From contig JALCDB010000004.1 of assembly GCA_022641095.1 (NCBI GenBank), positions 28,773 through 92,772 of the forward strand: a stretch of 64,000 bases of DNA. The letters are read 5' to 3'. Source of the stretch: Bacilli bacterium. Its GTDB lineage: Bacteria > Bacillota_I > Bacilli_A > RFN20 > CAG-826. The notes under the pieces are model-generated. The model was not told where the DNA came from. It saw only the letters and a program-made list of their open reading frames with translations, and did not search any database. A program made the position numbers and the translations under genes. Positions 15,810 to 46,851 of this stretch are shown in pieces. How positions within the stretch are numbered: position 1 is the first letter of the stretch; every line of letters begins with the position of its first letter.

Positions 15810-15829
15810 CAAAGAAAGGATTCAATATC

Positions 15830-16057: not shown

Positions 16058-16075
16058 TTATCATATCTCGAGAGC

Positions 16076-16103: not shown

Positions 16104-16613
16104 GTTCATAAAGCACGACGGCTTAAAAACTAAAATTTAGGCCCAATGTTCTTTTGCGACGTTTTTGGGTTCTGTGAATTACACAATTTTGCCTTCTCAA
16201 GGCGAAAAGAGCATCTGAAAAAGCGAGATGCAAAAATGTGGAATTTGTTTTAAAAGGTCATTATTCCATCTAGGTTTTGCCATATTATAAAATCGTCTCT
16301 AGCCATTAAAATGCAAAAAAATTAAAAGGACATGGCGACGTTTTCGTTAAAAATCCCTTCATAACTCATCGCGAATTGTTTATTTATGCCTTTTAGCGAT
16401 CTTTTATTTGAATAAAATGTTGGGACTTTGCAAAATGACCCCTTAAATAACACGCAAAACCCATTTGCATTGCGCACGCCCGCATTATGCGTGCAAGACT
16501 GTTTTTCTTATGTGGTAAAATATTAGTCATTCGATGAACGATAAATCATTTACGCTCTTCGAATATAGGGTCGGCTTTGGCTTCTTAGAATGCCTTGCCG
16601 ATATTGAGACGCA

Positions 16614-19028: not shown

Positions 19029-19030
19029 CC

Positions 19031-20761: not shown

Positions 20762-20762
20762 C

Positions 20763-32844: not shown

Positions 32845-33243
32845 GGGGTCGTCCTGGTTTTGACGGGGAAATGACTCGGCTTTGACTGCAGTGGCGCGGT
32901 GAGCTTAAACACCAAACCAAAATAACTGATAACAGTTATGCTTATAGGAACGTTAACCACGTCTCCTATGCTTGCGCCTAATTAGGTAACCTACGGATTC
33001 CTTCCCTTCGCGGAAGGGCAGCACGTCCTCGATCCGATTCGTGTCTCTCGGGTCCTTCGGGCGTCATATCAAGACACTAAGCGGCGGTTCTTGGCTAAGG
33101 GCTTCCGACGAAAACGCGTTAGCCTCGCCATGGGGACTTGACTGTGTCTTGCCCCGTGGTCAAATTCGATGCAGTCTAAACTGTAGGCGTCATTGATGAG
33201 TCTTCTTCGGACAGGGGTTCGATTCCCCTCGACTCCACCACCA
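32845..33243 (+). ncRNA. ssrA: transfer-messenger RNA (tmRNA)
   Basis: The 5-prime end GGGGUCGUCCUGGUUUUGACGGGG and the 3-prime T-arm and acceptor GGGGUUCGAUUCCCCUCGACUCCACCA match tmRNA. An internal tag frame reads gat aac agt ... tat gct tgc gcc TAA, preceded by aaauaacu as in the Bacillus tmRNA. Confidence 0.93.
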
Positions 33244-33244
33244 A
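33225..33244 (+). repeat. attL core (cccctcgactccaccaccaa), part of the ssrA 3-prime end
   Basis: An identical 20-mer occurs at 46253-46272. Confidence 0.9.
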
Positions 33245-33252
33245 ATCAAAAA

Positions 33253-33276
33253 AGCCTAGACAAAATCTAGGCTTTT
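33253..33276 (+). terminator. ssrA terminator (element-borne copy)
   Basis: The stem agcctaga-caaaa-tctaggct is followed by ttt. Confidence 0.7.
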
Positions 33277-33319
33277 CTTAATTCATAACCGATTTTTTGA
33301 CAACACTTTTGACAACAAA

Positions 33320-34411
33320 TCATTTTTGCTTATTAAACGACAAATCTTTAGGATCGGTGGCCCAAAAATCGGAAATGACGGTTTTCTCGTCGGGAAGGAG
33401 ATCGGCGTAATACTTTTGAGTGGTGGCTTCGGAAGCGTGGCCAAGCCATCTTGACACATAGCGGGTGGAAACGCCGTGAGAGATAAGAGCGACGGAACAG
33501 GAATCGCGGAACTCATGGTTCTTGATGGCGGGAAGCCCGGCGGCTTCCGCGTACCTCTTCCTAAGCCGGTCAACCTCGGTTTGGCCCAAAAGCCTGTGGC
33601 GATAAAACGCGGAAGGAAAAAGGAACCCGTCGCCATGGGGATATTCCTTCAAAAGGGCCTGGACCTGCGGAACGGGAGGCAAACGGCGGATTGACGAGGA
33701 CGTCTTCGGGGTGGTGATGATCTGATGGCCTTCCGAGTTTTTTGCGTTAAGGCCGCGGGAAACGGAAAGCCAGCCGCCCTTGAAGTCAGAGCCCTTCAAA
33801 GCTAGGGCCTCCGAAATCCGAAGACCGTAATAAAAGAGAACCCCGAACAAAAGGCGGTCGCGCGGGCTGGCGATCGCCGACATGAAAACACGGAACTGGC
33901 CGATGGTGTAGAAGTGATAGACGTGAGGGGCCGGAACGTCTTTCTTGAAAGCGAAAACCCTCTCATAATCAAGAATCGCGTTATAGCGCTTCAAAAATTT
34001 AACCCAATGGCGGGAAACGGAAACAGCGCGACCCATGGATTTATTGCCACACCTGTTGAGCTTCAAATTGAAAACGTCAAGGAAGTTATTGTCCAACTTA
34101 TAAACATCAACACCACTAAAAACAGGAGCAATATAGCGAAGAAAGAACTTCCGGAAACCATAAACGGTCGAACCCTTCAAAGTCTCGAAAAGAGAACCGA
34201 AATAAACCCCGTAAAGATCATCGCAAAGAATAGGCTTAGCAAAAGCCGAAGACTTGCCGGAAAGAGAAGCGACGAAAACGGGCTCAAACGAAAGCGCAGC
34301 CTTCCTAGTCAAAAAAGGGCGTTCCGAAGTCGAATAGCAGTAAAAAAGCTTTCCTTTCCAGGAGTAACGGATAAACCAACTCTTCCGAGACTTTGAATAA
34401 TAAACGGCCAT
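33320..34411 (-). CDS. int: tyrosine recombinase / integrase
   Basis: 363 aa. Box I is GLRISEALAL. The C-terminus HEFRDSCSVALISHG...WLGHAS...TQKYY carries the H-x-x-R, GH and catalytic Tyr pattern. The gene is adjacent to attL. Confidence 0.9.
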   Translation of the reverse strand: MAVYYSKSRKSWFIRYSWKGKLFYCYSTSERPFLTRKAALSFEPVFVASLSGKSSAFAKPILCDDLYGVYFGSLFETLKGSTVYGFRKFFLRYIAPVFSGVDVYKLDNNFLDVFNLKLNRCGNKSMGRAVSVSRHWVKFLKRYNAILDYERVFAFKKDVPAPHVYHFYTIGQFRVFMSAIASPRDRLLFGVLFYYGLRISEALALKGSDFKGGWLSVSRGLNAKNSEGHQIITTPKTSSSIRRLPPVPQVQALLKEYPHGDGFLFPSAFYRHRLLGQTEVDRLRKRYAEAAGLPAIKNHEFRDSCSVALISHGVSTRYVSRWLGHASEATTQKYYADLLPDEKTVISDFWATDPKDLSFNKQK

Positions 34412-34503: not shown

Positions 34504-35742
34504 TTATTTGCCTTTTCCCGTCTTGGCTATCAACTTATCTTCAATGAACCGCATGACGGCATCGACGATGCCGCGAGGGGTATCGGTCGCGAACAGAGAC
34601 TTCCCGCCCCCATCGATGCCAACCATCATAAGACTTTGGATTTTGCCTTCGACATAAAGGCCATAAATCCGAAACGGAACATCGTCAAAGCCGTTCTTGC
34701 CGAAATAAAAGGTCTCCTCGGTGAGAAGGGACAAACCGTCTTGGCCAACCTCGGCATCACGATTAAGAAGGAAGAAAACCGGATCGCCTTTGTCCGCGCC
34801 GTCGAGGATCCTCTCCTTCGAGACGGACTCGAGTTTCTTCACTAAAGACAGATCGTACCAAACCTTCCAAGCGGGAACCTTCGCGGAGGCGGATTCAACG
34901 GAACCCCTTTTCGAGACGGCCTTCCCATCCTCGCGCTCCCTGAGCTTCTTGCGGAGGAAAGCGGCGAGCTTCCCGGAAAGGAGGGAGGGGGTCTTCGCCG
35001 ACTCGTAGACGTACAGGCTTTTCTTGCCAACCCAGAAAATGCCGTGGCAGGCGAACTCCTTCTTGGCCTTGTCGAAGCAAACGTCGAAACTCACCTTGAC
35101 CAATCCGGCGTCCGAGGAGAAGGATCCGGAGACTGTCTTGGAGCCCTCGGAACCGTAATGATCCTTCGGCGTTTCGGAAAGCGCGGGCGCGGCGAGAAAC
35201 GAACCGCAAAGAAGGAAAGCCCGCCCAAGGTACTCGTCGAAGCTTTTGGACTCAGCCTTAACCTTGTCGAGAAGCTTCTGGTCCCGGATCGCCTGAACGG
35301 TCATGTCGGGCCTGTAACCATCGATGCCGTCCTTTACGGGCAAAAGCTCGACGAGCTGCGTGAAGGAGTAATCCTTGTACTTCCCGCCCCAGGAAAGCCC
35401 CTTGCCGAACCTCTCGAAGACGGAGATGAAATTCTTGGTGCTCGTGCGTTTGAAGCCCAAGACCTTCTCGGAATAGTCATAGATGTCAGCATAGCCGCAG
35501 GCGGCGAGAACCCCCTTGTCATCGCGGAGGGCGGCGAGCTCCCGGCCGATATCGACGAAGCAGGAGGCGACTTGACGAGAGGCGGAAACAAGCCGCTGCG
35601 TGTGCTCGCCCAACTTAGTGGTCATATCCAAAAGAGATCTATCAGGAGCGACGAGAGCCCGGTCAGTCAACTGACCAACGGGCCTGCTTTCGACGACGAC
35701 GGGCGAAGCGGCTTTGGCAACCGCCTTTGCAACTTTTTTCAT
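34504..35742 (-). CDS. hypothetical protein (412 aa), element-encoded
   Basis: The ATG has a good context and the gene is tightly packed behind the upstream gene. The N-terminal third loosely resembles DUF3102/KorB-like helical regions. No firm motif was found. Confidence 0.55.
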   Translation of the reverse strand: MKKVAKAVAKAASPVVVESRPVGQLTDRALVAPDRSLLDMTTKLGEHTQRLVSASRQVASCFVDIGRELAALRDDKGVLAACGYADIYDYSEKVLGFKRTSTKNFISVFERFGKGLSWGGKYKDYSFTQLVELLPVKDGIDGYRPDMTVQAIRDQKLLDKVKAESKSFDEYLGRAFLLCGSFLAAPALSETPKDHYGSEGSKTVSGSFSSDAGLVKVSFDVCFDKAKKEFACHGIFWVGKKSLYVYESAKTPSLLSGKLAAFLRKKLREREDGKAVSKRGSVESASAKVPAWKVWYDLSLVKKLESVSKERILDGADKGDPVFFLLNRDAEVGQDGLSLLTEETFYFGKNGFDDVPFRIYGLYVEGKIQSLMMVGIDGGGKSLFATDTPRGIVDAVMRFIEDKLIAKTGKGK

Positions 35743-35746: not shown

Positions 35747-36397
35747 CTATTTTCCTTTATTTGTTTTTTCCGAATCTAAAGAGACATCAACTCTAGTAAT
35801 CCTCAAATCCGCAAAACGCTTATTCGCTTCCTCATCTTTCTTAAAAAAGCCGGACCAACGGCGGTAATCCCAGGAATAGAAACGGCCGGGAAAGGAGCAA
35901 ACAAATTCGCCGGAAGCCCTGCAAAGCCCCATGCGATGATCCGCGTAAAAAAAGAACAGCCGATCACCCTTTCGAACCTGAACGACGTCCAGTCCGTCGG
36001 GCTCCTCGCCGGCCACCTCCGAATAATCGGCAAGAACCAAACCGGCCGGATCCCGGAAATCTCGATAGAAATCGGCGACGGCGACAATGACAACGAACGA
36101 TGAACGGAAAACCTTTGCGAAATAAGTTTTTCTGACGACGTCGGACGCAGAGCGAAAAAGGTCTTTCTCTCTCTCTATGTCACGCGGAGTCTTCCCAAGG
36201 GAAAAACCGGCAAAAACAATCTCCTCGTAACGGTCAAAGCCGAGATCATCAAGGTTCTCGGTGCCGGAATAGTAATCAAGCAAGACCTTTTGGGCCTCTT
36301 TGATTCCCTTATAAAAAAGAGAAACGAAGAAAGTAAAAAACAAAAACAAAAACAAAACGCAATCGAAGACCAGCTGAACGACCTCAAACACATTCAT
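35747..36397 (-). CDS. hypothetical membrane-anchored protein (216 aa)
   Basis: The N-terminal TM helix is VFDCVLFLFLFFTFFVSLF and the RBS aaggaggg is upstream. Confidence 0.55.
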   Translation of the reverse strand: MNVFEVVQLVFDCVLFLFLFFTFFVSLFYKGIKEAQKVLLDYYSGTENLDDLGFDRYEEIVFAGFSLGKTPRDIEREKDLFRSASDVVRKTYFAKVFRSSFVVIVAVADFYRDFRDPAGLVLADYSEVAGEEPDGLDVVQVRKGDRLFFFYADHRMGLCRASGEFVCSFPGRFYSWDYRRWSGFFKKDEEANKRFADLRITRVDVSLDSEKTNKGK

Positions 36398-36491: not shown

Positions 36492-37865
36492 TCAGTTCCC
36501 CTCCTTCCTTCCTTTGAAGGATTCCGAATCGTATTTAGCGGAACCAAGCTTCAAGGCTTGCTTCCCGAAAAGGCTCTCGACTTCGGCCGGAATATCACGG
36601 AAAACATCAAACCATCCGGAAGCGTTTTTAAGACACTCTTCCTTGCTCGAGTAAACGGGAAGACCCTTCTCTTTGCGATAGTTGTTAACAACGATAAGGT
36701 CCTTTGACCCAAAACGGGAGAAACCCGAATTAAGCAAATAAATAAAGGAAGCCTCGGCGTTTTCCGGAGAGGCAAAAGCAAAACGGGAAAGAGCTTTCCC
36801 GGCATCGCGATTCAACCATTTTGCGTTGGAGCTAACGGTGGATTCCGCGCGAACCTGGCAGATGATCTTATGGGAAGAAACGCCCTTCAGGAACCGCTCC
36901 CACGGCCTCCAGACGGGATAACGCGACAAATGAGCCCGATCCGGATTACTAGAAAGAGAACGAAACGAAACGATACCGCCAAGCAAACCGGCGGCGAAGG
37001 CCGGAAACCGGTTCTCTTTCAGAGCCGCGGAAACCTCCGGAGCGCAAGCGACGGCATACCGGTCGTGATAACGCAACTCCCAACGGGTCCACGAAGGAAT
37101 GTCAACGACACAAGCCTTGGATTCGCGTTCCGCTTTCTTGTTATAAACGTTCAGCATCACGCAGGACTTGGACCCGATGTAATAGCTGACGGACTCGCCT
37201 ATGCCCTGCTTCTCGACGAGGGGGTCCTCAAGGGTCCCGTCGCGACCGCGGGAACGCAAAGAAGAAAGATAAGAACGGGATTCGATCTTCTTGATGACAC
37301 CGGAATAGGGAACGCGACCAGAGAAATCATCAACGGCAACGTCAATACGGGTGACATGGCCGCCGAAAAGCAAAGCCGTATCTATAACCAAGGCCCATTG
37401 CAAAGCGGTTGCCTTATCAAGCTCGGATTCAGGGACCCCTTCCGAATGCATTTCCAAATACCGATCAACAAACCGCCGCTCAAACGCGCGGCAACCAGAA
37501 CCGGAGACCTCAATAATCCACGTATGAGAAGAAGACAGACTAGCATTGCGGTCACCGCCCCATATCACGCAGGTTTCCTCATCGTAAAACCTCTTAGTCG
37601 TGTAGCCGTAACGGCCCTTTTCGTCGTCCACTTCGGCCCCGAAATCGAGGCAAAGCGGACCCGCGAGGTTTTTTGCAACTTCACAATCGGGCGAAAAGTC
37701 CCCGTCAAACCTGATAGTTAGATAGTCAATTAGCGTATTGAAATGTGGAGAACTACGGGGGGTGTTACCTACCCCCCGCGCGTGTGCGCCCGCACGCTGA
37801 TCCACGGAAACGGCTTCATTAGTGGCAACGACCTCGGAGGCCCGGGCGATCCCTTTCCCGCTCAT
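36492..37865 (-). CDS. rolling-circle replication initiator / relaxase of the Rep_trans family
   Basis: 457 aa. The motifs HVTRIDVAVDDF, YYIGSKSCVMLNVYNKKAE and WTRWELRYHD match the conserved blocks of pT181 RepC, CTXphi RstA and Tn916 Orf20-type proteins. The start overlaps the upstream stop as ATGA. Confidence 0.8.
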   Translation of the reverse strand: MSGKGIARASEVVATNEAVSVDQRAGAHARGVGNTPRSSPHFNTLIDYLTIRFDGDFSPDCEVAKNLAGPLCLDFGAEVDDEKGRYGYTTKRFYDEETCVIWGGDRNASLSSSHTWIIEVSGSGCRAFERRFVDRYLEMHSEGVPESELDKATALQWALVIDTALLFGGHVTRIDVAVDDFSGRVPYSGVIKKIESRSYLSSLRSRGRDGTLEDPLVEKQGIGESVSYYIGSKSCVMLNVYNKKAERESKACVVDIPSWTRWELRYHDRYAVACAPEVSAALKENRFPAFAAGLLGGIVSFRSLSSNPDRAHLSRYPVWRPWERFLKGVSSHKIICQVRAESTVSSNAKWLNRDAGKALSRFAFASPENAEASFIYLLNSGFSRFGSKDLIVVNNYRKEKGLPVYSSKEECLKNASGWFDVFRDIPAEVESLFGKQALKLGSAKYDSESFKGRKEGN

Positions 37866-40138
37866 CGGCCAAACCTCCTTCCACCACCGACGGAGGCACG
37901 GCCCTTTGCCGAACGTGCAGGCCGCCCGGCCTTTGCACGTCCGGCTATACGGGCCTTAGCGCCCAAAACGCTGCTTGCAGAGGAAGAAAGACGGTTTGCC
38001 GACAAATCGGCCACAACGTAGCTTCCCTGGGCTTCCCATTCGGCTCTAGTGTTTTCGACACCGGAGAACTTAGGCAATTCATTAAAGCCGCAAACAGCGA
38101 GGTTTTTCCCATCGTTCAAGAATCCGCTCATGCAGTTTGACTGATAACGATCGGAATAAGCCAAGAAGTAAGGAGCGTAGAAATCAACCTCGTCACCTTC
38201 GACCAAATCGCCGGAAGACGTGCAGGAAGCGGATTTAAGGCCGATTTTGTCATAACCATAACGATTGCGAACGAAATCAGAAACGGCGGAAGCATAGAAA
38301 GACAGGCGAGAAACGAGCCATGACAGCAACGTCGAATCCTCACGGGCAAAGCGGTAATTCCGATAGAAGCGGTCGCAAAAGGCCAAAGCCTTCTCAATGA
38401 TGACCGGCTCGATCCACCAAAACGGAACCGCGTTCCTTTCGGAGATGTTCTTAGGATCAACCGTGAAAATGCTCTGGGCAACACTAACGTCAGTCAAACT
38501 CAAAGCACCGGAATACTGCATATCCCCGAAAATCTTAAAGAAATTGACATTATCAATCGAAGCGATGTGGCCACCCAATTTGATGGAATAGCCGAAAAAA
38601 TCATTTTTTGGGTTGGCCACATCGTCGGAAACCTTCAAAGAAGAATTAGAATCGCGGTTGCCGCGTTCCTTGTCCTCTTCCGTAATGACATAAACGCCAG
38701 GCCCCGCAGAGGCGTTGAAAGCGTTGTTGGGATCGACGCGCAAACCAAGACGAAGCGAATCAAACCGGATAATGTGGGAGAAAGTGGAAAAACCCAGCAT
38801 ATCCCGGTTATCACGATGGAAAATATCGTCATTCCACAAGAACAAATGGCCTTGATCCATCCTGATTTCATCAGTACGAATAGAATAGTTTGAAGAGATG
38901 TAGGTATCGTAACGCGCATAAACGTAATAAGCCTGGGCATAGCATTTCAGCGCATGGGCGAGAGTGACGATTTTGCACCCATCGTAATAAGTGACCCTTT
39001 CGCTTCCGAGGTCGTAATGATAATGACGAAACCGAAAATACCTATAGATCAGACCGGCAAAAGAGCCGGCTTGCTCGATATTGAAAATCCTTCGACGATG
39101 GCCAGGACTCCAAGAAGAATACCAAAGGATCTCATTCTCGAACGCCTGCCAAGGAAAATCCGGAAACATCCTGGAATACTTCCGCATGATCCGATAGGAA
39201 TCTTGCCTATCGTTAAGACTTTGGAAAATAGCGAACAAAGTCATGAGCTTCGTCTTGCCGGCCCTCATCTTGCCCAGGATCAAGGTGAAAACGCCCGTGC
39301 AGGCCCTTAGGACGGCCTGACAAGCCGGAATGAGCCTTCGGGTTATGAACCTGTCGGCGCGGCGGAAGCAAAGCCAACGGAACGCAAAATAGCCGAGAAT
39401 GAGAAGCAGCCAAGCAGGAAGGAAAGACAACGAGAAGAAGAAACTCGTCAGAGTGGCCAAGACGAAATCGGCCAGGGAGAGAAGATCCATCGAGGCGAAG
39501 AAATAGAAGAAAAGCCCCACGAAATCCAAAACGTAGGAATAGGCGTTAAGGCCGTACAAAAGGAACAAGACAAGAGGCAAGCCCCAAAACGAGCGGAAAA
39601 GCCAGCCAACATAGCCAGAAACGCGTTTCAGGGCCTTCCCGACGAAGCCAAGGCCGGCCTTGAAACGGACGAGCTCTCGCGAACTAGCGAACCAAGGCAA
39701 GCCGGATTCCTCATAGTAAGAGCCAAGCAAAAGCTTCCCGATGAGCAAGGCGACGACCAAAAGCATAAGAAGCCTAACGACAAAATAGAGAAAAGAGGAT
39801 CCGCTAACCAAAAACCCCAAGAATTGCCCCTTGGTAAACAAAAGCCGGAAATAAACCAGAACGGAGGAAAAAAACGCCTTGGGATCGGGCGAGGCGATCC
39901 ACGACGGCAGCTCGCCCATGGAGGTTACATAGGAAAGCAAATAAGGAGAAGACGGTTTCCGGCCAAAGAACAGGGTAACGAAAGAGAAAAGCCTCTCAAT
40001 GAGAACAATGAAAGAAGAAAGCAGTCTAGGAAAAGCCCACGGTTCTACGAACACGACGAAAGCGAACGCGCCGCAGAAAATAAGAACGGCCAAGAAGTGC
40101 GGCCAAAGGACTTGAAGATAAGTGATAAACCTTTTCAT
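37862..40138 (-). CDS. polytopic membrane protein with cytoplasmic P-loop NTPase domain (Zot/pI-like or FtsK/TcpA-like)
   Basis: 758 aa. The N-terminal roughly 270 aa hold about 7 hydrophobic helices. Walker A is LILGKMRAGKT, a candidate Walker B is VYVITEED, and the C-terminal tail is Arg/Gly/Ala-rich. Confidence 0.65.
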   Translation of the reverse strand: MKRFITYLQVLWPHFLAVLIFCGAFAFVVFVEPWAFPRLLSSFIVLIERLFSFVTLFFGRKPSSPYLLSYVTSMGELPSWIASPDPKAFFSSVLVYFRLLFTKGQFLGFLVSGSSFLYFVVRLLMLLVVALLIGKLLLGSYYEESGLPWFASSRELVRFKAGLGFVGKALKRVSGYVGWLFRSFWGLPLVLFLLYGLNAYSYVLDFVGLFFYFFASMDLLSLADFVLATLTSFFFSLSFLPAWLLLILGYFAFRWLCFRRADRFITRRLIPACQAVLRACTGVFTLILGKMRAGKTKLMTLFAIFQSLNDRQDSYRIMRKYSRMFPDFPWQAFENEILWYSSWSPGHRRRIFNIEQAGSFAGLIYRYFRFRHYHYDLGSERVTYYDGCKIVTLAHALKCYAQAYYVYARYDTYISSNYSIRTDEIRMDQGHLFLWNDDIFHRDNRDMLGFSTFSHIIRFDSLRLGLRVDPNNAFNASAGPGVYVITEEDKERGNRDSNSSLKVSDDVANPKNDFFGYSIKLGGHIASIDNVNFFKIFGDMQYSGALSLTDVSVAQSIFTVDPKNISERNAVPFWWIEPVIIEKALAFCDRFYRNYRFAREDSTLLSWLVSRLSFYASAVSDFVRNRYGYDKIGLKSASCTSSGDLVEGDEVDFYAPYFLAYSDRYQSNCMSGFLNDGKNLAVCGFNELPKFSGVENTRAEWEAQGSYVVADLSANRLSSSASSVLGAKARIAGRAKAGRPARSAKGRASVGGGRRFGR

Positions 40139-40509
40139 CGTTCGACCCCTCTCTTGAACAAGTAGGAAAAGTCATAAAGGGAATAGAAATCGCCGTTGCC
40201 GAGAACGCGGATAACGAAATCCGTCTCGCCGTCGCAGTCCAAAGCTCCGGAGGAATACTCATAGGAGAAATCGAAGGAGACCTTCCCGGAAACGAGCCGG
40301 CCAGAAGAACCGTCGCGAATGAGGACGTAATGATCGGAAGCCGAAACATAAACGCCGGGCAAAGCATCGGCGGAGACGCCCGCGCCTTTTTCCAGAGACG
40401 CGCAGGCGGAAACGCAATAGACGGCGAAAACGGTTGTCAGGGCAACCGTCAAGACCTTCCAAAACCGGAAGGATTTGTTCGGATCGGAACTTCGGCCGAA
40501 ATGAAGCAT
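40135..40509 (-). CDS. small lipoprotein (124 aa)
   Basis: The signal and lipobox read TVFAVYCVSAC, and the RBS aggagg lies 6 nt upstream. An ATGA overlap links it to the NTPase gene. Confidence 0.65.
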   Translation of the reverse strand: MLHFGRSSDPNKSFRFWKVLTVALTTVFAVYCVSACASLEKGAGVSADALPGVYVSASDHYVLIRDGSSGRLVSGKVSFDFSYEYSSGALDCDGETDFVIRVLGNGDFYSLYDFSYLFKRGVER

Positions 40510-40527: not shown

Positions 40528-42210
40528 TCAGCGTTTGCGGATCTTCTTAGTTTTGGCCTCCAATTTCCTAATTCGCCGGCCGTTCCTCAACGAAGAAAGG
40601 CCGAACGCAAAGCCAAAAGCTTTGTAAAGCAGACAGCAAACGCCGACGAAGCCAAGAACGCCGCCGGCGATCTTCAAAGCGGCCAAGACCTTATCCCATG
40701 CGGAAGCCAGGTTATCGACGACCCCGTTGACGTGAATAGTGTAGGGATGCGTGATGTGGGCCACGGTCGTGTCAACGGGCGTGTCGACGCAAGAAAAAGT
40801 GATATCACCCCCGAGGAGATCGTTGTGGAACGTGAGAGTCAGAAGCCGGACCGAGTCTATCTGGTGGCATGAGGTGTTGGTGTAGTAGCCTTCGGCGCAG
40901 AAGCCGCCGCCGACGACATGGCGCTCATAAGGCCTATCGTTGAGAAGGATCGCGTAGTCGTAGGATCCGGAACCTTCGGAATCGGAGTAGTCGCGGTATT
41001 CCCGGCAAAGATCGACGAAGGGCTTAACGCGCGCCCCATTGGTCTCCTTGAAGGACTCCTCGGCGCTCAAGGCGGCCAAGGAGGCGTCGTCGAGCCTCTG
41101 GATCGAATCGAAGGCGTAAACGAGATCGTCGTGGCCGAGAAGCCATTTGTTGACGGGGTCGCCGCCGTCGGGGGCGGTAACGACGGTAACGCCGGAAGAC
41201 ACAACATCATAAACAGTTGGCTTGGAAGCGACCGAGTACGATTCATAGGTAATGCCGGAAACCGCTTTGGCGGGATAAGAAGGGAAGGGCCCGGAAAACT
41301 CGCGCCACTTATCGCCCAGATAATCAAGATAATCCGAAGGATCGCCATAAAGGCCGCCGTAAACATGGCCTTCATTCAGGTTCCGCCAATCGCAAAACAA
41401 AGGGCGGTGCTCGCTGGCGACATAAGAGGAAACGAAATATGAAACGCGAACGCTTTTGAGCAAATCAAGGCCGGTGATAGCGGAAGAAGAATCGCCCAGC
41501 TTGAAAAAACACCAGAAGTTCTCCAAAGCTGAGGCCGGGAAGTTCCCGGACCGGGGAACGAGAACGCAATCCAAAACCGCTAATTTCCTTTTTATCACCA
41601 CGTAATCGTCCGAGAAGCTTCGGGCGATTGGGTCAACGCCATCGGCCACGTCCTGCCAGCAGATCTCGAAATCGGAGCAAGCGCGAAAGAAAGGGACGTA
41701 GAAAGAAGAAAGGCCGCCCAACAGGGAAACCGCGACGCGATGACAGGAGCCGACGACGTACGGATAAGCGTTCCTGATAACCGACTTCCGGAAGCACCCG
41801 AAATCGGCCGGGGCGGTGCTGATGGCGAAGTTGGAGAAGGAGTCGTGATACGTGCCGTCGTCTGAAACGGCGGAGACGAAACTCAAAGAGGCGAAGCCAA
41901 AAAGGTCGGAATCGCCGGAAACGCTGGAATAATAATAGAAATAGAGGTCGCCTTTGCAAGGAACGATCTGGAAGAACCGGAAATCCGAATATGGGTCCGC
42001 CTCGGAGCCGGAACGGACCGAGGAACGAGGAAGGAGCCATGCCAGAGTCTGGCCCTCACAACCGGCTTCCTTGGCCTTCTCATCGAACATGGTCTGAAGA
42101 TCCACGGCGGCGTTGGAGGTCTCGATCTCGATATTGGGAACCGAGGCAAGGCAAGGAACCGACAATGAAGCGATAAGAGCAACGGTGGCAGCGAAAAGTG
42201 ACAAACTCAT
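40528..42210 (-). CDS. secreted protein with C-terminal membrane anchor (560 aa)
   Basis: Starting at ATG 42210 gives the signal peptide MSLSLFAATVALIASLSVPCLA. The C-terminal TM is GVLGFVGVCCLLYKAFGFAFGL, followed by a basic tail. The Arg-rich upstream ORF extension overlaps the preceding gene. Confidence 0.65.
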   Translation of the reverse strand: MSLSLFAATVALIASLSVPCLASVPNIEIETSNAAVDLQTMFDEKAKEAGCEGQTLAWLLPRSSVRSGSEADPYSDFRFFQIVPCKGDLYFYYYSSVSGDSDLFGFASLSFVSAVSDDGTYHDSFSNFAISTAPADFGCFRKSVIRNAYPYVVGSCHRVAVSLLGGLSSFYVPFFRACSDFEICWQDVADGVDPIARSFSDDYVVIKRKLAVLDCVLVPRSGNFPASALENFWCFFKLGDSSSAITGLDLLKSVRVSYFVSSYVASEHRPLFCDWRNLNEGHVYGGLYGDPSDYLDYLGDKWREFSGPFPSYPAKAVSGITYESYSVASKPTVYDVVSSGVTVVTAPDGGDPVNKWLLGHDDLVYAFDSIQRLDDASLAALSAEESFKETNGARVKPFVDLCREYRDYSDSEGSGSYDYAILLNDRPYERHVVGGGFCAEGYYTNTSCHQIDSVRLLTLTFHNDLLGGDITFSCVDTPVDTTVAHITHPYTIHVNGVVDNLASAWDKVLAALKIAGGVLGFVGVCCLLYKAFGFAFGLSSLRNGRRIRKLEAKTKKIRKR

Positions 42211-42695
42211 AACTGACCTCCCACGACGTAGCAAGGCTGATAAGTCGAATCGGAGGACGGGTCGAACCCATAGGGGGCCTCGCCGTCTTGCATAGCGGCC
42301 GAGACGAACCAAACGCCGGCCTTCGAAATAGAAACCGGGGAACTGACCACAAGGCCACCCAAGGCGGAAGTCGTGGCGGTCAAGGAGTTCTGCGGATCCC
42401 CGAGCCAAGCCCCGAAGGCGAGATCGCCGACCCCATCCCCGAAGGAGGACCAAAAAGCGAGATCGAGGAAACGGGCCGACTGGTCCTGACCGTCAAGGGC
42501 GACCAAATCCTCTGACGAGAAAGAGGCCGAGACCGCCGAAGCGGAGCCGGCCTTGTAAGTCAGCTCAAGGACGACCGGAAACCCGTCAACGACGGCCGGG
42601 ACGCCGATAAGCAACTTAGACGGGTCAACCGACTTAACGGACGCGGAACAGGAGCACAAAGCCAGACAGGCAAGGACGACAAGTCTCTTTTTCAT
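42207..42695 (-). CDS. lipoprotein (162 aa)
   Basis: Starting at ATG 42695, the sequence MKKRLVVLACLALCSC carries a lipobox, and the RBS gggagg is upstream. An ATGA overlap links it to the downstream gene. Confidence 0.65.
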   Translation of the reverse strand: MKKRLVVLACLALCSCSASVKSVDPSKLLIGVPAVVDGFPVVLELTYKAGSASAVSASFSSEDLVALDGQDQSARFLDLAFWSSFGDGVGDLAFGAWLGDPQNSLTATTSALGGLVVSSPVSISKAGVWFVSAAMQDGEAPYGFDPSSDSTYQPCYVVGGQL

Positions 42696-42704
42696 AAAGC
42701 CTCC

Positions 42705-42763
42705 CTCGTTCCTTCTGAAACAGGAAGAACGAGCGAAGCCCCTCCCCAAGGGCGGGGGAGGGG
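42705..42763 (-). other. two tandem hairpins between cistrons
   Basis: One stem is cccctcccc/ggggagggg (9 bp, 42739-42763). The other is ctcgttccttc/gaagaacgag (42705-42733). Neither is followed by a U-tract. Confidence 0.5.
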
Positions 42764-42775
42764 CGGGCACAGGGA

Positions 42776-43756
42776 TCAGCTGAACTGGACGGAAGAGGAG
42801 TCGGCGGAAAGCGAGGTCGGCGGGACGTAGGCCCCGACGAGGAAAGAGTAGGAGGCCTCCTCGAAGACGACGGACTCGGGGGAGGCGGCGGAGGAATACC
42901 CGCCCAGCTCCTTGGCGTTCCCGTACCAAATAAGGACGGAATGGCCGTCGGAGGCGTCCAGGCGCCTATCGAAGGAGGTCCCGTCCGGGCCCTTCGTGGC
43001 CGAGGGGAGGGCGGACGGATCGCTCGCGGTGACCTCGAAGATCAAAGTCAGATAGAGAGGGCGCGAGTCGTCGAACGACCAAGTGACGGTCTTGGTCGGG
43101 AAGTCCCAGGCGAGGCAGCAGAACGGGGACGACTGGGATTGGAAATCGGAGCCGGCGAAATTGACGAAGGAGAGGAGATCCGGAGAAGAAAGATCGCCAG
43201 TTCCGTACGAAGAGTAAAGATCGTCGGCGAGGGTCATCCTGACGAGGCTGAGCTTGGTGACGAAGTTGTAGACGGTGACCGGGATGGTGACGACGTCGGA
43301 GGCTAGGGCCTCAGGATGGGCGGTGACGTTCACGGTCCCGCTGAACTCGCCAGCGGCCAAAGTCAGAGTGACGGCCGAGCCGGAAAGGACCCTGCCGGCG
43401 CTGACGGCGATTTTCGCGGGATCGGAAGACTCAACCAGGACGTACTTGTCGGTGGCGTTCGCCGGCTCGATGGTGAAGACGACGGTCTTAGTGGCGCCGA
43501 CCTGAACGGATTTCTGAATACCTCCGGCGCCGAAGACGGTTCCGCCGTAGACCTTGGCGGAGAGAGAGCCGGACGAAAGAGTAGTCGTCGGAGCGTCGCC
43601 GTCGGTAGAACCGGAAGTTGCCGGGATAATCTTCCCGATCTCCGAATCGACCCAATCGCGAACCGTCTTGTTAAGCGAGTAAACGGCGGCGGCGGCCCCG
43701 GCGATAAGGGCCACGGAAGCAAAGATGGAGAGCCAAACACGACCACGTTTCTTCAT
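42776..43756 (-). CDS. N-terminally anchored surface protein with bacterial Ig-like (Big_2-type) region
   Basis: 326 aa. The TM helix is WLSIFASVALIAGAAAAVY. The segment VQVGATKTVVFTIEPANATDKYVLVESSDPAKIAVS..VTLT..GTVNVTA resembles a Big_2 domain. The RBS aggagg is upstream. Confidence 0.6.
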   Translation of the reverse strand: MKKRGRVWLSIFASVALIAGAAAAVYSLNKTVRDWVDSEIGKIIPATSGSTDGDAPTTTLSSGSLSAKVYGGTVFGAGGIQKSVQVGATKTVVFTIEPANATDKYVLVESSDPAKIAVSAGRVLSGSAVTLTLAAGEFSGTVNVTAHPEALASDVVTIPVTVYNFVTKLSLVRMTLADDLYSSYGTGDLSSPDLLSFVNFAGSDFQSQSSPFCCLAWDFPTKTVTWSFDDSRPLYLTLIFEVTASDPSALPSATKGPDGTSFDRRLDASDGHSVLIWYGNAKELGGYSSAASPESVVFEEASYSFLVGAYVPPTSLSADSSSVQFS

Positions 43757-43858
43757 ATAAAATACCTCCTAGGTATCAGGGCATGAACGCCCTTGGGAAG
43801 CCCCCCAAGGAAAGGGGGCCTCGCAAGGGAGCCTTGGTCTCCCAAGGCCCCGAACGGA

Positions 43859-44404
43859 TCAGACAGCGGGTCCGACGGGCGAATCGGATTCGGCTTTCAG
43901 AGACTCGTCGAACGAATCGTCGGCGGCGGTCCCATCAAACGGGATCGGCGCGTATTCCTTCCCAATAAGGCCCTTGGAAAGGCGCAGAAGAAGAAGCTGA
44001 ACGAACGGATCGGAGGGTTGGAGCCGATAGGAGAGGATAAGAAGCCTGTCGAAGTAGAGCTCGACCATGTAGGAAGACCGTTCCTTGCCTTGATCGTTTT
44101 GGCCCCAAACAAACTTCGTGATCCGAACCTTCGCCTTGGCGCGGAACTGCTCGGGAACGAACTTCCCGTTTTGGATAGTCACGAGAAGGCCGTACTGGTT
44201 ACCAGTCAATACGATGTGATACTTGGTGATGAAGTCGAAAATGACGTCGGCGGAATAGTTGTCGTTGACGGTCTTGGTGCGCCTGTCTGTGCGGCTCGAC
44301 TTCGTGATCAGAACGTCAATAGTTGGCAACTTGGCAAGCGACGTAGTATCGAGAGAACGCAGACCGACGAACTTAGCAGCCTCGGATTTTTCTTGGTTTT
44401 CCAT
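43859..44404 (-). CDS. hypothetical protein (181 aa) with acidic C-terminal tail, possible ssDNA-binding protein
   Basis: ATG 44404 is preferred over GTG 44440. The C-terminus is PIPFDGTAADDSFDESLKAESDS. No firm motif was found. Confidence 0.45.
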   Translation of the reverse strand: MENQEKSEAAKFVGLRSLDTTSLAKLPTIDVLITKSSRTDRRTKTVNDNYSADVIFDFITKYHIVLTGNQYGLLVTIQNGKFVPEQFRAKAKVRITKFVWGQNDQGKERSSYMVELYFDRLLILSYRLQPSDPFVQLLLLRLSKGLIGKEYAPIPFDGTAADDSFDESLKAESDSPVGPAV

Positions 44405-44448
44405 TTTGGAAACCTCTTTTCTGGCGCGTAGGTGCGCCACCCCTTTAT

Positions 44449-44464
44449 GCTTAGGGCCCTAAGC
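44449..44464. repeat. perfect 16-bp palindrome gcttagggccctaagc
   Basis: The palindrome was read directly. It lies in the only sizeable non-coding gap of the long operon, near a 6-bp-arm dyad at 44422-44439 and a 10-bp palindrome at 44527-44536. Confidence 0.9.
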
Positions 44465-44494
44465 CCATGAAGCCGTGCGGAACCAAGCGGAAAC

Positions 44495-44522
44495 TTGACA
44501 AACGCGCACGATAAGCGATAAT
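44495..44522 (+). promoter_or_regulatory. candidate promoter pointing antisense to the element operon
   Basis: TTGACA, a 16-nt spacer, then GATAAT on the + strand. No credible + strand CDS lies downstream. Confidence 0.35.
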
Positions 44523-44563
44523 GGGATCGCTAGCGAGAATGAGCCGCCCAAACGCGGACGTCG

Positions 44564-44869
44564 CTAGTTTTTCTTTCGCCTTTTGCCCGAAACGAACGAA
44601 TCGACATAAGCCTCGTCGGCCTTGCCCAACCGCCAACCGGGAATCGGCTTTCTGAACGAATGGTGGGAATCGGAGCGAAGCTCTCTCCTCAAATAGCTCT
44701 TGCGCGGATCCCGGGGATCGGGATTGGACGACAGCTCGTGGCATTTGTGACCGCCGGAGTAAGGGGAATGCGTGAGCCCGATGAAGTCGTAGGCGCGGCC
44801 ATCGTCGCCGACGATCAGAGAAGGGTGATTGGACTTCCGGTATTTGCGGAAATGCTTTTTGAAAGGCAT
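44564..44869 (-). CDS. small basic protein (101 aa)
   Basis: The ORF is tightly packed, Lys/Arg-rich at both ends and has a His-rich centre (THSPYSGGHKCHE). Its function is unknown. Confidence 0.5.
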   Translation of the reverse strand: MPFKKHFRKYRKSNHPSLIVGDDGRAYDFIGLTHSPYSGGHKCHELSSNPDPRDPRKSYLRRELRSDSHHSFRKPIPGWRLGKADEAYVDSFVSGKRRKKN

Positions 44870-44882
44870 GGCGGCGGCCCGA

Positions 44883-45116
44883 TCACCGAACGGCTTTCTT
44901 CCTGGCGGCGGCCCACTTGGCGCGCTGCTCCCCGAAGTACTCGCACATAGCCCTCCAGGCAGGAGTGCGGCTGTCCAAGCCCTTTCGGAGGGGGATCCCG
45001 TAATTGTGGTAATGGCCGTCCTCCGGGGTCGATGCGACCATGTAGAAGGCGCCTTTGCCGAGGCGGCCGACGTTCTCGACCCTGAACCTCTTCCTACCGT
45101 CCGTGAAGTAAGCCAC
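44883..45116 (-). CDS. small protein (77 aa)
   Basis: The ORF is tightly packed in the operon and no motif was recognised. Confidence 0.45.
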   Translation of the reverse strand: MAYFTDGRKRFRVENVGRLGKGAFYMVASTPEDGHYHNYGIPLRKGLDSRTPAWRAMCEYFGEQRAKWAAARKKAVR

Positions 45117-45118
45117 GG

Positions 45119-45355
45119 TCAGCGCCGCCTTTCCCTGAAATAGGCGCGGGCGGCCTTCAGGACATCCTCGTTCTGCCTATGGCCGGCGGGGCTTTCGCGG
45201 ACGCCTTCGCAGCGGAGGAACGAAACGTCGTAGGCCGTGCCTTTGCGGTCGCCCTCCACCCAAAGCGTGAAATTGTGGCAACCTTTCGGGGCCGCGGGGT
45301 TGTCCTCGAAATTTGTCACTTTCCTTTTCTTGCCTTTGAACCAAATCCAGGCCAT
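45119..45355 (-). CDS. small protein (78 aa)
   Basis: The ORF is tightly packed in the operon and no motif was recognised. Confidence 0.45.
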   Translation of the reverse strand: MAWIWFKGKKRKVTNFEDNPAAPKGCHNFTLWVEGDRKGTAYDVSFLRCEGVRESPAGHRQNEDVLKAARAYFRERRR

Positions 45356-45356
45356 A

Positions 45357-45491
45357 TCAGCGGACCCCTTTCCTGCAGTCGATCAGAGCCGAATCTTTGT
45401 AGCCAAGGCGATGAAGGACGGCCCGATAGCCGTTCCAATAGACCTTCTTCCGGAGAATCGACTCAAACGAACGCTTTTTAGATAACTTCAT
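45357..45491 (-). CDS. possible 44-aa basic peptide at the head of the operon (Cro/Xis-like position)
   Basis: The sequence is my own translation: MKLSKKRSFESILRKKVYWNGYRAVLHRLGYKDSALIDCRKGVR. The stop lies 1 nt before the next ATG. The gggagg RBS is 12 nt away, across a small hairpin. Confidence 0.3.
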   Translation of the reverse strand: MKLSKKRSFESILRKKVYWNGYRAVLHRLGYKDSALIDCRKGVR

Positions 45492-45633
45492 AGGTCTTTT
45501 TGACCTCCCAAACCTGTTTCAGACAACGAATCTCTAAGAAAGAAATGTAATCTACCTCGTAACATTAACTAAAGTTTGCAACACAAAAACTAACAAATCA
45601 ACAAAAAAGTTATGCAAAACGTACAATTTAGAC

Positions 45634-45903
45634 GTGAAATGGGAACGTTTAGCCGAATTAAGAAAAGAAAAAGGATTAACCCAAGAAGAGCTGGGCAATA
45701 CCTTTAACGTAACCAGACACACGGTGACAATGTGGGAAACCGGAAACACGGAACCGGATTACGCGACACTGATCAAACTTGCCGATTTTTTAGAAGTGTC
45801 GACTGACTATCTTCTAGGCCACCAAGCAAAAATCTCTTTAACCAAAGAGCAAAAAGAAACTCTAAAAAAAGCAGAAGAGATAATCAATGAAATAACCAAA
45901 TAG
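45634..45903 (+). CDS. XRE-family HTH regulator (cI-like repressor candidate)
   Basis: 89 aa. The HTH LRKEKGLTQEELGNTFNVTRHTVTMWETG is present. The gene is divergent from the long operon. The start is GTG. Confidence 0.8.
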   Translation: MKWERLAELRKEKGLTQEELGNTFNVTRHTVTMWETGNTEPDYATLIKLADFLEVSTDYLLGHQAKISLTKEQKETLKKAEEIINEITK

Positions 45904-45914: not shown

Positions 45915-46136
45915 ATGATCATCGATTACATTTTATCAGCCTCAGAATCAACAAACGACAGCATGGTAGGGCACATCACCACCCCGGAAACGACTCACAC
46001 ACCAGGGCTAATAGACGTGCCTTGGGCAATACCAGTTTTCGTAGGAATGGCGATAACGATAGTTGTTTTACTTGTCATCATCATAGTCAGGAAACAAAAC
46101 CAAAACTTTTTGAAAAAAGAAAAAAAAGACAAATAA
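45915..46136 (+). CDS. single-pass membrane protein (73 aa) with basic C-terminal tail
   Basis: The TM helix is WAIPVFVGMAITIVVLLVIIIV and the tail is RKQNQNFLKKEKKDK. The RBS aaaggaaa is upstream and the gene is co-directional with the XRE gene. Confidence 0.5.
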   Translation: MIIDYILSASESTNDSMVGHITTPETTHTPGLIDVPWAIPVFVGMAITIVVLLVIIIVRKQNQNFLKKEKKDK

Positions 46137-46252
46137 AGCCATACCACACTTTGACAACGAATCCATTCTTTAAGAATGAAAAAAGCTAACAAAACAATAA
46201 CAATAAGAAAACCAAAGATAGCAACTGAATAACATAAAAACAAGTGAGTAAT

Positions 46253-46272
46253 CCCCCTCGACTCCACCACCA
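46253..46272 (+). repeat. attR core (displaced copy of the ssrA 3-prime end)
   Basis: The 20-mer is identical to 33225-33244. Confidence 0.9.
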
Positions 46273-46280
46273 AGCAAAAA

Positions 46281-46303
46281 GCCTAGATTACATCTAGGTT
46301 TTT
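46281..46303 (+). terminator. presumed original ssrA terminator
   Basis: The stem cctagat-tac-atctagg is followed by tttttt. Confidence 0.7.
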
Positions 46304-46467
46304 TATTTTTCAATACCACAGTTTTGCCACATGTTTATCCGTGTTTTCCCGATTTTTGGCCATTGATCTTGGATTGGAAATCAAAGGTTTTTTGAAGCGG
46401 TTTCTCTTTTTTGTCTTTCCTTGTCATATCGTTTTCCATCGTTCAAACGGTTTTCTTGTTCCTTGCG

Positions 46468-46851
46468 ATGAGCGATGCCAAGAAAGGCGGACGCAACGAA
46501 ATACGCGATGGGGTTATCGCCGTTTCTTTCTCGCTTGGGGCCACGCTTCTGTCGGGTTTTGCCAACATCGTGTTTTGCTCAGCCTCCAGCAGAATAACCG
46601 ACCATGTCATCTCGCTTTGGATATCAAGCGCGTTAGGCGCTCTTTATATTCTCTATTTCGTTAAGTTGAAAGACATGGATTCGGCCGTTGACATAGATAT
46701 CCCGACCAGCTCGATCAAAATCGATCTAGACAAAGCCGACGCTCTTAAGAAATACAAAGATTTGCTTGATGCCGGCGCAATAAGCCAAGACGAATACGAC
46801 AAAAAGAAAAAGCGATTTATTGAAATGGGTTATTTTTTCGTTTTCCGATAG
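46468..46851 (+). CDS. membrane protein with C-terminal SHOCT-like domain
   Basis: Two TM helices are followed by DKADALKKYKDLLDAGAISQDEYDKKKKRFIE, the SHOCT pattern. ATG 46468 is preferred over TTG 46411. Confidence 0.55.
   Translation: MSDAKKGGRNEIRDGVIAVSFSLGATLLSGFANIVFCSASSRITDHVISLWISSALGALYILYFVKLKDMDSAVDIDIPTSSIKIDLDKADALKKYKDLLDAGAISQDEYDKKKKRFIEMGYFFVFR

Follow-up and report, generated by a model that had tools for sequence, protein, structure and literature searches.

In a 64,000-nucleotide stretch of the genome of a Bacilli bacterium (assembly GCA_022641095.1, contig JALCDB010000004.1, positions 28,773 to 92,772; here called the window), two coupled open reading frames (ORFs), encoding a 758-aa membrane ATPase and a 457-aa Rep_trans protein, lie within an element of 13.0 kb that is inserted into the 3′ end of the transfer-messenger RNA (tmRNA) gene. 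We consider it somewhat probable that this element represents a virus of the filamentous-phage type, temperate, non-tailed, and non-lytic, in which the Rep_trans protein would act as the replication initiator and the 758-aa protein as a pI-like export and assembly ATPase. The parts are of known kinds, namely, Rep_trans, a tyrosine integrase, integration at tmRNA, and a pI-like ATPase. An inovirus- or plectrovirus-type prophage was one of two readings that an initial annotation had offered for the ORF pair. It gains from the integrated element, a circular relative, an inovirus-like gene order, the likeness of the ATPase fold to ORF3 of Acholeplasma phage L2 and to Zot, and a profile match to plectrovirus ORF2; it lacks a Zot profile match and a hydrophobic coat protein.

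Both ORFs are on the minus strand, at 37862 to 40138 (758 aa) and 36492 to 37865 (457 aa), and the stop codon of the ATPase gene and the ATG of the Rep gene overlap in the sequence cgATGAgc, with GGAGG 10 nt upstream. The overlap is thus as initially annotated, and every motif quoted at that time is present in the translations: GKMRAGKT (residues 289 to 296) and VYVITEED (residues 482 to 489) in the 758-aa protein and TRIDVAVDDF, YYIGSK, VYNK, and WTRWEL in the 457-aa protein. The start of the ATPase gene is likewise overlapped, at an ATGA, by the upstream gene for a 124-aa protein, and the gene for a 560-aa protein, with its start refined, overlaps the preceding gene for a 162-aa lipoprotein in the same way. 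The operon is therefore a chain of coupled genes. Since the Rep protein matches family profiles and full-length homologues of the ATPase, with invariant residues, occur in 1,242 protein clusters, we conclude from these comparisons that the 758-aa and 457-aa ORFs are real genes and not chance ORFs.

The 457-aa protein is a predicted Rep_trans rolling-circle initiator, in agreement with its initial identification. It matched PF02486 with an E value of 6.7e-24 (85 bits, against a cutoff of 29.6) and Rol_Rep_N with an E value of 3.4e-5 (24.4 bits, against a cutoff of 23.7). In an alignment to PDB entry 4cij (E = 2.6e-9), TRIDVAVDDF fell on ITRLDVAVDDF and the Tyr of YYIGSK fell on YFGAPSS. We take this Tyr to be the catalytic one, as in pT181-family Reps. 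Judged by this alignment, Rep_trans keeps both the catalytic Tyr and the acidic metal-binding motif, and the loss of the Tyr that the initial annotation had allowed for has not occurred.

The second initial reading was a minimal integrative and conjugative element (ICE) or integrative and mobilizable element (IME). In such an element, or in one resembling the actinomycete integrative and conjugative elements (AICEs), Rep_trans would be a MobT/NicK-type relaxase acting at an origin of transfer (oriT), the ATPase would be a coupling protein or translocase into the recipient, and the surface proteins would serve cell contact. We regard this as unlikely, and the evidence that bears on it comes from several sides. 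The order of the ATPase and Rep genes, which we take to match that of Tn916 orf21-orf20, favors it, as does a weak match of Rep to MobT (NF041493; E = 4.6e-8). However, the MobT match reached 32.2 bits against a cutoff of 600, and the phage replication family phrog_453 scored higher on the same protein (75 bits; E = 1.3e-20). The nearest annotated phage relatives of Rep are Dulem virus 64 and Dulem virus 68 (Inoviridae, from lemur feces), followed by small rolling-circle plasmids of Bacillota; its nearest annotated relatives are thus replicative Reps of small rolling-circle plasmids and inoviruses, which argues against a relaxase.

The 758-aa protein is a membrane domain of six to seven helices fused to a divergent additional-strand catalytic E (ASCE) P-loop ATPase. 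AlphaFold predicted nine helices in the polytopic domain (residues 1 to 279; 39302 to 40138, minus strand), of which six to seven are hydrophobic enough to span the membrane, so that the earlier estimate of about seven was reasonable; this domain is conserved family-wide. The cytoplasmic P-loop domain (residues 280 to 758; 37865 to 39301, minus strand) was defined from alignments, AlphaFold, Foldseek, and hhalign. Its motifs are Walker A at residues 289 to 296, ITEEDKERGN at 485 to 494, NPKND at 509 to 513, H524, and FKIFGDMQ at 533 to 541 (family consensus, F.K...D.QR). A conserved insertion of about 190 aa, carrying SNYSIRTD, lies between Walker A and Walker B; K295 and E487 are 192 residues apart, close to the roughly 200 aa first noted. 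Residues K295, R421, R463, E487, K490, and N494 are invariant across the family alignment. In Walker B, which has the form (I/V)TE, E487 is invariant and Thr replaces the Asp of hhhhDE.

No Pfam or NCBIfam family matched the 758-aa protein, and PHROGs gave one weak, uninformative match, which supports the initial suggestion of an undescribed NTPase family. A search of PDB sequences with the family profile gave P-loop matches only. The full-length AlphaFold model had a predicted local distance difference test score (pLDDT) of 73 and was uninformative in Foldseek; the soluble domain was therefore re-modeled with 146 sequences, and the model of residues 262 to 720 reached a pLDDT of 94.8 and a predicted template modeling score (pTM) of 0.91. 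The best match of this model in BFVD was the "37.2 kDa protein" of Acholeplasma phage L2, which is ORF3 (E = 4.4e-5; probability, 1.0), followed by an unnamed viral protein (E = 1.7e-4) and, more weakly, by A32-like packaging ATPases. Two matches to "Zonular occludens toxin" of Inoviridae sp. were also found (E = 5e-3, probability of 0.99; E = 2.5e-2, probability of 0.94). Foldseek TM-scores were low throughout, at 0.2 to 0.5.

Profile comparisons pointed to the plectroviruses. With hhalign, the plectrovirus ORF2 family aligned to the ATPase family with a probability of 80% (E = 1.3e-5), residues 508 to 558 of the window's protein (NPKND..GGH..FKIFGDMQ) falling on ORF2 residues 158 to 201 (..ARHF..TAQRE). 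When the single SpV1 ORF2 sequence was compared with the family, the last membrane helices and the P-loop were aligned (probability, 60%; E = 8.7e-5). After the insertion (residues 313 to 473) was cut out, an edit of the alignment that is our own, the probability was 89% (E = 2e-6) over 165 collinear columns, in which the Walker B strands were not superposed. A comparison with M13 pI aligned the P-loop only. As other counterparts of the ATPase we considered L2 ORF13 (738 aa) and L2 ORF1 (591 aa), for which hhalign found nothing, and SpV1 ORF1 (715 aa), which is similar in size but is a signal-peptide/C-anchor protein unrelated to the ATPase.

The surroundings of the gene are those expected of a Zot/pI ATPase, with a replication initiator and short same-strand genes nearby. 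Its six to seven membrane helices depart from the one or two, N or C terminal, by which Zot/pI proteins have been recognized (Roux et al. 2019, PMC6813254). The initial annotation had objected that a membrane-first topology does not match Zot; this objection falls for the pI versions of Mollicutes phages, since SpV1 ORF2 and L2 ORF3 are membrane-first. As far as the model and the profiles indicate, the nearest structural and profile relatives of the ATPase are the pI/Zot-type ATPases of Mollicutes phages and inoviruses. Because fold, motifs, topology, and context combine in this direction, we assign the ATPase to a new family that is strongly derived and lies close to the pI/Zot-type ATPases of Mollicutes phages, outside PF05707.

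The same searches bear on a coupling-protein role. HerA was also among the best PDB neighbors of the ATPase domain, and HerA and the B204 packaging ATPase, both of which we take to be members of the FtsK-HerA superfamily, are a point in favor of an ICE or IME. Against it, FtsK and TrwB were absent from the top 50 PDB structural matches, and the FtsK_SpoIIIE, TraG-type, and TcpA-type profiles matched 0 of 66 family members at E ≤ 1.

The best structural match also raises the question of an enveloped, pleomorphic virus of the L2 type, a sub-case of the non-tailed virus that we favor. Here the DNA would be condensed by the basic proteins, budding through the membrane would give a particle that carries the anchored ectodomain proteins and lipoproteins, and loading or release of the genome would fall to the ATPase. 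In addition to the fold of ORF3, the same local three-gene order in L2, the presence of four or five small basic proteins with no hydrophobic coat protein, the several membrane-anchored immunoglobulin (Ig)-like proteins and lipoproteins encoded, and the occurrence of the nearest clade in Bacilli metagenome-assembled genomes (MAGs) such as "Ca. Enteromonas" are consistent with this. However, no sequence or profile similarity to any L2 protein extends beyond the P-loop, the L2 record has no annotated rolling-circle Rep, and the TM-scores for ORF3 were just 0.27 to 0.38, with a root-mean-square deviation of 9.9. Comparison with the structural and ATPase genes of L2 thus gave a fold-level likeness of the ATPase only and no sequence homology to Plasmaviridae, and we think an L2-type particle improbable.

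The element has clear borders. The last ~20 nt of the tmRNA gene (ssrA; 32845 to 33240, plus strand; ARAGORN and Rfam RF00023, 108.5 bits against a gathering score of 47), together with the terminator hairpin behind them, are repeated 13 kb apart. The repeat at the tmRNA gene, the integration target, is attL (33222 to 33302), and the displaced copy is attR (46251 to 46329); the two direct repeats have the common core AT(T/C)CCCCTCGACTCCACCACCAA and then AAAAAGCCTAGA..ATCTAGG. A 363-aa tyrosine integrase (33320 to 34411, minus strand; PF00589, E = 1.6e-17; phrog_1 integrase, E = 1.4e-37) adjoins the tmRNA 3′ end. Toward attR lies an XRE/Cro-C1-type helix-turn-helix (HTH) repressor (45634 to 45903, plus strand; HTH_3, E = 1.6e-15; Phage_CI_repr, E = 6e-4) that is divergent from the main operon. 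Between this end and attL, the whole operon, from the small basic proteins through to the integrase, is on the minus strand. Because the integrase, the repressor, the att repeats, and the minus-strand operon surround the ORF pair, we conclude that the pair is the core of the 13.0-kb integrated element. In scans of every element ORF against Pfam, PHROGs, and NCBIfam, domains of terminases, capsid or tail proteins, lysins, VirB4, FtsK, and TraG were not found, nor was a cell wall hydrolase or any other part of a type IV secretion system (T4SS). The lack of VirB4, hydrolase, and T4SS parts argues against an ICE or IME.

A relative of the element exists as a circle. Two contigs, assembled independently, encode an ATPase homologue (P0002) that is 77% identical to that of the window: L088, of 12,814 bp, whose ends overlap by 141 nt (a k141 assembly), and L089, of 12,692 bp, whose ends overlap by 19 nt. 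These contigs are 100% identical circular permutations of one 12,673-bp molecule. The circle is joined exactly at the att site, between integrase and repressor, and its junction matches the att region of the window; attR is an 87 to 89% match to the attP region of L089 and of a further relative, L090. The element in the window is collinear with the circle at 66 to 91% nucleotide identity (blastn against L089). Its best-conserved stretch is a 67-nt non-coding block between repressor and operon (45479 to 45545; 91%), a candidate operator/promoter or origin, and coding DNA is 66 to 84% identical. The circularity check was negative for 80 genome loci and 10 further contigs, leaving L088 and L089 as the only circular ones.

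The gene order agrees with that of filamentous phages: a signal-peptide/C-anchor protein, a small membrane protein, and the ATPase follow one another and are combined with replication by Rep_trans, HUH, or transposase proteins. In the window, the first of these is the 560-aa protein (40528 to 42210 with its refined start, minus strand), which has a signal peptide, a C-terminal membrane anchor, and a basic tail, a pIII-like architecture, and has a 558-aa counterpart in L089. The second, in the pVI slot, is the 124-aa lipoprotein-like membrane protein (40135 to 40509, minus strand), which has an N-terminal hydrophobic segment ending in ..VSAC and is conserved in L001 to L003, L089, and L090. The collinearity of the layout with that of an inovirus, Dulem virus 68, is a further point against an ICE or IME.

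The ORFs of 80 loci encoding relatives of the ATPase were clustered into families, and 79 loci were analyzed for the type of Rep. In a distant clade (26 to 29% identity), small basic proteins are followed by an ~115-aa protein, two or three N-terminally anchored proteins, an ~195-aa anchored protein, a 475- to 700-aa signal-peptide/C-anchor protein, a 47- to 75-aa single-pass protein, the ATPase, and an ~340-aa protein. The last is an HUH Rep (PF23343, "Replication-associated protein ORF2/G2P"). A Rep stands behind the ATPase in most of the 79 loci, of the PF23343 HUH type in 52 and of the Rep_trans type in the 5 closest; IS30-like DDE transposases accompany the module in 22. We know of no relaxase role for PF23343-type HUH Reps, and their presence in 52 loci argues against an ICE or IME. 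Some loci have a third type of Rep upstream of the module (family F25, for example, L029 4008 to 5108), with an HUH-like HYHIY motif and a helicase-like P-loop, GKGGTGKT, and some carry a LexA-like repressor or sigma-like regulators. Filamentous phages exchange replication genes, including Rep_trans, HUH Reps, RepL, and IS3/IS30 transposases (PMC13595969). The swap of non-homologous Reps beside a constant ATPase/membrane module therefore follows the pattern of filamentous phages and is not expected of a relaxase and its coupling protein.

The family is large. A word-indexed search found 23 relatives only, none of which has a Pfam domain or any name other than "hypothetical protein." An exhaustive profile search found the 1,242 clusters (at 50% identity), of which 623 were below an E value of 1e-30, nearly all of them full length, and a scan of one genome per species (185,579 genomes) found 345 loci. 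Taxonomy and neighborhoods were determined for 80 listed loci of the 345. Nearly all of these are in gut or rumen MAGs of Clostridia (Christensenellaceae, Oscillospiraceae, and others) and Bacilli ("Ca. Enteromonas," Onthoplasma, and Scatosoma), the clade closest to the window being in Bacilli MAGs such as "Ca. Enteromonas." One Christensenellaceae MAG, MGBC157066, has three copies of the ATPase module (L033, L052, and L056), and two other MAGs have two copies each. Among GenBank phages there is one record, MT835493.1 (L081), a 57-kb "UNVERIFIED: Bacteriophage sp." from human feces, whose ATPase is 80% identical to that of L034. In PLSDB, the ATPase is on 0 of 72,556 plasmids.

Multiple copies in one MAG, the kinship of Rep to the Reps of small rolling-circle plasmids, the lack of a recognizable capsid gene, and the existence of reduced variants would fit a satellite or an integrative rolling-circle plasmid that has no particle of its own and depends on a helper phage or on vesicles. 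The ATPase would then serve exclusion, secretion of surface proteins, or partition. We hold this to be very unlikely. Across over 1,000 protein clusters, and despite changes in the kind of Rep, the ATPase stays with the small membrane protein encoded upstream of it and with the Rep encoded downstream, which argues for a self-contained module. In addition, the nearest relatives of the ATPase are virion-morphogenesis ATPases, and its absence from PLSDB counts against a plasmid as it does against an ICE or IME.

Several results weigh against a virus of the filamentous-phage type. The Zot profile (PF05707) matched 0 of 66 family members at E ≤ 1. Foldseek gave no significant match of the ATPase domain in PDB, the best being the B204 packaging ATPase of STIV2 (E = 0.04), with Zot (2r2a) at an E value of 0.15 (probability, 0.69). 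The L2 ORF3 family profile, compared with the ATPase profile with and without the insertion, aligned at the P-loop alone, so that this likeness is structural only. No small hydrophobic alpha-helical coat protein was found, by size and hydrophobicity, in the main operon of the element in the window or in that of L089, where the small ORFs encode basic, soluble proteins. The sole small single-pass protein of the element is tm73 (73 aa; 45915 to 46136, plus strand); we rejected it as a coat protein because it is encoded in the repressor operon. In the reduced variant L096 to L099, no large surface protein lies beside the ATPase. IMG/VR holds 2 loci, and this near-absence from virus collections could mean either that the element is not packaged or that virus-finding tools overlook it. 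Finally, a circular form is equally expected of an excised ICE, an excised IME, or a plasmid.

Some of these results speak for an ICE or IME in turn: the integrase and excised circle fit such an element, the family is almost absent from virus catalogs, reduced variants have few membrane proteins, and a coat protein was not found. Taken with the Tn916-like gene order and the weak MobT match, they leave that reading standing in weakened form, set against the lack of FtsK, TraG, and TcpA profile matches, the MobT score below its cutoff, the empty plasmid search, and the exchange of Reps.

If the element is a virus of the filamentous-phage type, its cycle can be proposed from the parts. Relief of the XRE repressor would lead to expression of the single minus-strand operon. 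Rep_trans would nick the origin and drive rolling-circle replication, giving circular single strands, and the small basic proteins would coat this DNA. The ATPase, probably oligomeric and anchored through its own polytopic domain, would act with the coupled small membrane protein and the signal-peptide/C-anchor protein to move the DNA through the only membrane that the monoderm host has. The particle would be assembled at the membrane and released without lysis. A secretin would be unnecessary in a monoderm host, and the enlarged membrane domain may form the conduit.

The candidate coating proteins are encoded at the upstream end of the operon, on the minus strand. The first is a very basic 101-aa protein (44564 to 44869; net charge, +12; family F9) with relatives near the ATPase in 10 loci, mostly of the distant clade (tblastn). 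Three further small basic proteins (44883 to 45491; 77, 78, and 44 aa, with net charges of +9, +7, and +10) have counterparts in L089. L089 has five consecutive small, very basic proteins (794 to 2026; 71 to 91 aa, net charges of +6 to +15), of which three end in GGR and two carry Cys/His clusters; the Rep tail similarly ends in Gly-Gly-Lys. The reduced variant L096 to L099 has two extremely basic proteins, of 82 aa (net charge, +29) and 120 aa (net charge, +19). They are accompanied by an HTH protein and small acidic proteins, by an anchored protein of 126 aa, and by the ATPase together with an HUH Rep and a transposase of the rve type. In distant relatives, the only small single-pass protein is that of 47 to 75 aa in the pVI position.

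The surface proteins and the remaining genes of the operon are also on the minus strand. The 162-aa lipoprotein (MKKRLVVLACLALCSCSAS...) is encoded at 42207 to 42695 (refined start) and has a 166-aa counterpart in L089. A 326-aa protein (42776 to 43756) has an N-terminal helix anchor and a predicted Ig-like ectodomain (phrog_215, "structural protein with Ig domain," E = 2.8e-9; a weak Big_2 match). A 181-aa soluble protein of unknown function (43859 to 44404, refined start) is conserved in L001, L003, L089, and L090 and has no family match. A GC-rich hairpin (43790 to 43829; 16-nt arms, 88% complementary, with an 8-nt loop) lies between the 181-aa and Ig-like genes. The surface-protein part (41000 to 45000) has a GC content of 58 to 61%, compared with about 50% in the remainder of the element and in its flanks, and AT skew is strongly positive across 33 to 44 kb of the window. 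Downstream of Rep are a 216-aa protein (35747 to 36397) with an N-terminal membrane helix, as judged by sequence and hydrophobicity, and a 412-aa protein of unknown function (34504 to 35742), whose sole match is to phrog_15077 (unknown function; E = 3e-13). The 216-aa protein resembles, by eye and not by computed alignment, a 146-aa gene product of L089 that is differently placed there. In the repressor operon, tm73 is a candidate immunity or exclusion protein; in L089 it is conserved from end to end (56% identity; E = 2.8e-26).

For two of the relatives, a PHROGs search with the small and membrane proteins was uninformative, the sole matches being to phrog_3136 (unknown function) and, weakly, to a MazF-like family. 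Hidden Markov models of the accessory families found nothing significant among all the proteins of L2, SpV1, M13, and the Dulem virus. The large proteins of L034 (8311 to 9744) and of L2 (L082; 246 to 2021) have "FETDGIT(Y/H)" just before the C-terminal anchor. This motif, shared with L2 ORF1, is not significant, hhalign having aligned 16 columns with a probability of 0.5%. In two sheep-rumen Bacilli MAGs, an end of the element adjoins tRNA-Ala (L002, 5809 to 5884; L003, 13914 to 13989), and no integrase was detected after Rep, so that the integration route is unlike that in the window. Elsewhere in the window, just beyond attR, are presumably host genes for a SHOCT-domain membrane protein (46411 to 46851) and a PhoH-like ATPase (47157 to 47948; PF02562, E = 4.5e-35). 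The region from 15000 to 21000 has a lower GC content (43 to 48%) and an AT skew of -0.12 to -0.18 and may be a foreign segment or a strand switch.

A broader proposal, which we put forward tentatively and hold to be possible but doubtful, is that the family represents a lineage, at the level of a family or an order, of non-tailed, chronically released viruses of gut and rumen Bacillota that virus finders have missed. In these viruses, basic DNA-condensing proteins would replace the hydrophobic coat, and the pI-type ATPase would be fused to a six- to seven-helix channel. If this holds, the lineage would bridge Plectroviridae and Plasmaviridae as a missing link and would be the bacterial equivalent of archaeal viruses that bud. 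In our literature searches, neither the family nor the polytopic fusion with its ~190-aa insertion nor the basic-protein set was described. Seven candidate inovirus families have been reported from infant gut viromes (PMC10159846); these were outside the comparison, so an earlier sighting under another name is possible. As it stands, there is no model in Pfam, PHROGs, or NCBIfam for this large family, whose hosts are abundant Clostridia and Bacilli of the gut and rumen. If its members are chronic, non-lytic viruses, they would mark a blind spot of gut virome surveys and would provide a new handle on the mobile DNA of Christensenellales, Oscillospirales, and related orders. How DNA or particles cross a secretin-less monoderm membrane could be learned from an ATPase that has a polytopic domain of its own.

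Of the known systems, Dulem virus 68 (PP511664.1, Inoviridae) allows a gene-by-gene comparison. Its 5,680-bp circle encodes ZOT, Rep_trans, a hypothetical protein, a repressor (minus strand), an 85-aa protein, three small hydrophobic proteins, a 512-aa C-anchor protein, and an 85-aa membrane protein. The order of repressor (on the opposite strand), small proteins, large signal-peptide/C-anchor protein, small membrane protein, ATPase, and Rep_trans is the same in the element. However, the Dulem ATPase is a canonical Zot of 199 aa, with a DEC Walker B and one C-terminal helix, whereas that of the element has 758 aa, six to seven N-terminal helices, and the long insertion, and the two have no common sequence past the P-loop. 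The three small hydrophobic proteins of the Dulem virus are of the coat type, in contrast to the basic, soluble proteins of the element. The Dulem genome has 5.7 kb and no integrase, and the element has 13 kb with an integrase and extra surface proteins.

In the plectrovirus SpV1-R8A2B, a phage of Spiroplasma, ORF2 (337 aa) resembles the element's ATPase in having its membrane helices first, in its Walker A (GKLGTGKT, against GKMRAGKT), and in a motif ARHF..TAQRE that corresponds to GGH/RH..D.QR. It differs in having two helices, no insertion between Walker A and Walker B, and a Walker B of DES in place of (I/V)TE. The remaining plectrovirus proteins are unrelated to those of the element. L2 ORF3 (312 aa) likewise has an N-terminal hydrophobic region and then the P-loop, and L2 ORF3 and SpV1 ORF2 share a Walker B of the DE type and the motif RH..(S/T)Q. 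The local order in L2 is a large C-anchored protein (ORF1), a small protein with two transmembrane segments (ORF2), and the ATPase (ORF3), as in the element; like it, L2 is temperate, has 12 kb, encodes a tyrosine recombinase, and has nearly all genes on one strand. The element may place plasmavirus L2, an orphan, in a broader group together with the plectroviruses.

The pI protein of f1/M13 and the Zot protein of Vibrio phages have a similar Walker A and pIII- and pVI-like neighbors (gIII-gVI-gI in M13), as well as the role in morphogenesis that we propose for the element's ATPase; in pI, however, the ATPase comes first and one membrane helix follows. Tn916 orf21-orf20, ICESt3, and ICEBs1 share with the element a membrane P-loop ATPase followed by Rep_trans and the nature of a tyrosine-integrase element. 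Unlike them, the element has no FtsK_SpoIIIE similarity and no T4SS genes, its Rep is below the MobT cutoff, and that Rep is interchangeable with phage-type HUH Reps. In Dehalococcoides, IME1 has a pI-like ATPase and no tailed-phage hallmarks and was proposed to represent a new non-lytic, probably filamentous virus lineage (bioRxiv 10.64898/2026.09.15.751708). Set beside the element by description only, IME1 has 21 to 28 kb, is confined to Chloroflexota, and encodes small hydrophobic candidate capsid proteins. This preprint, from 2026, makes a parallel argument in another phylum.

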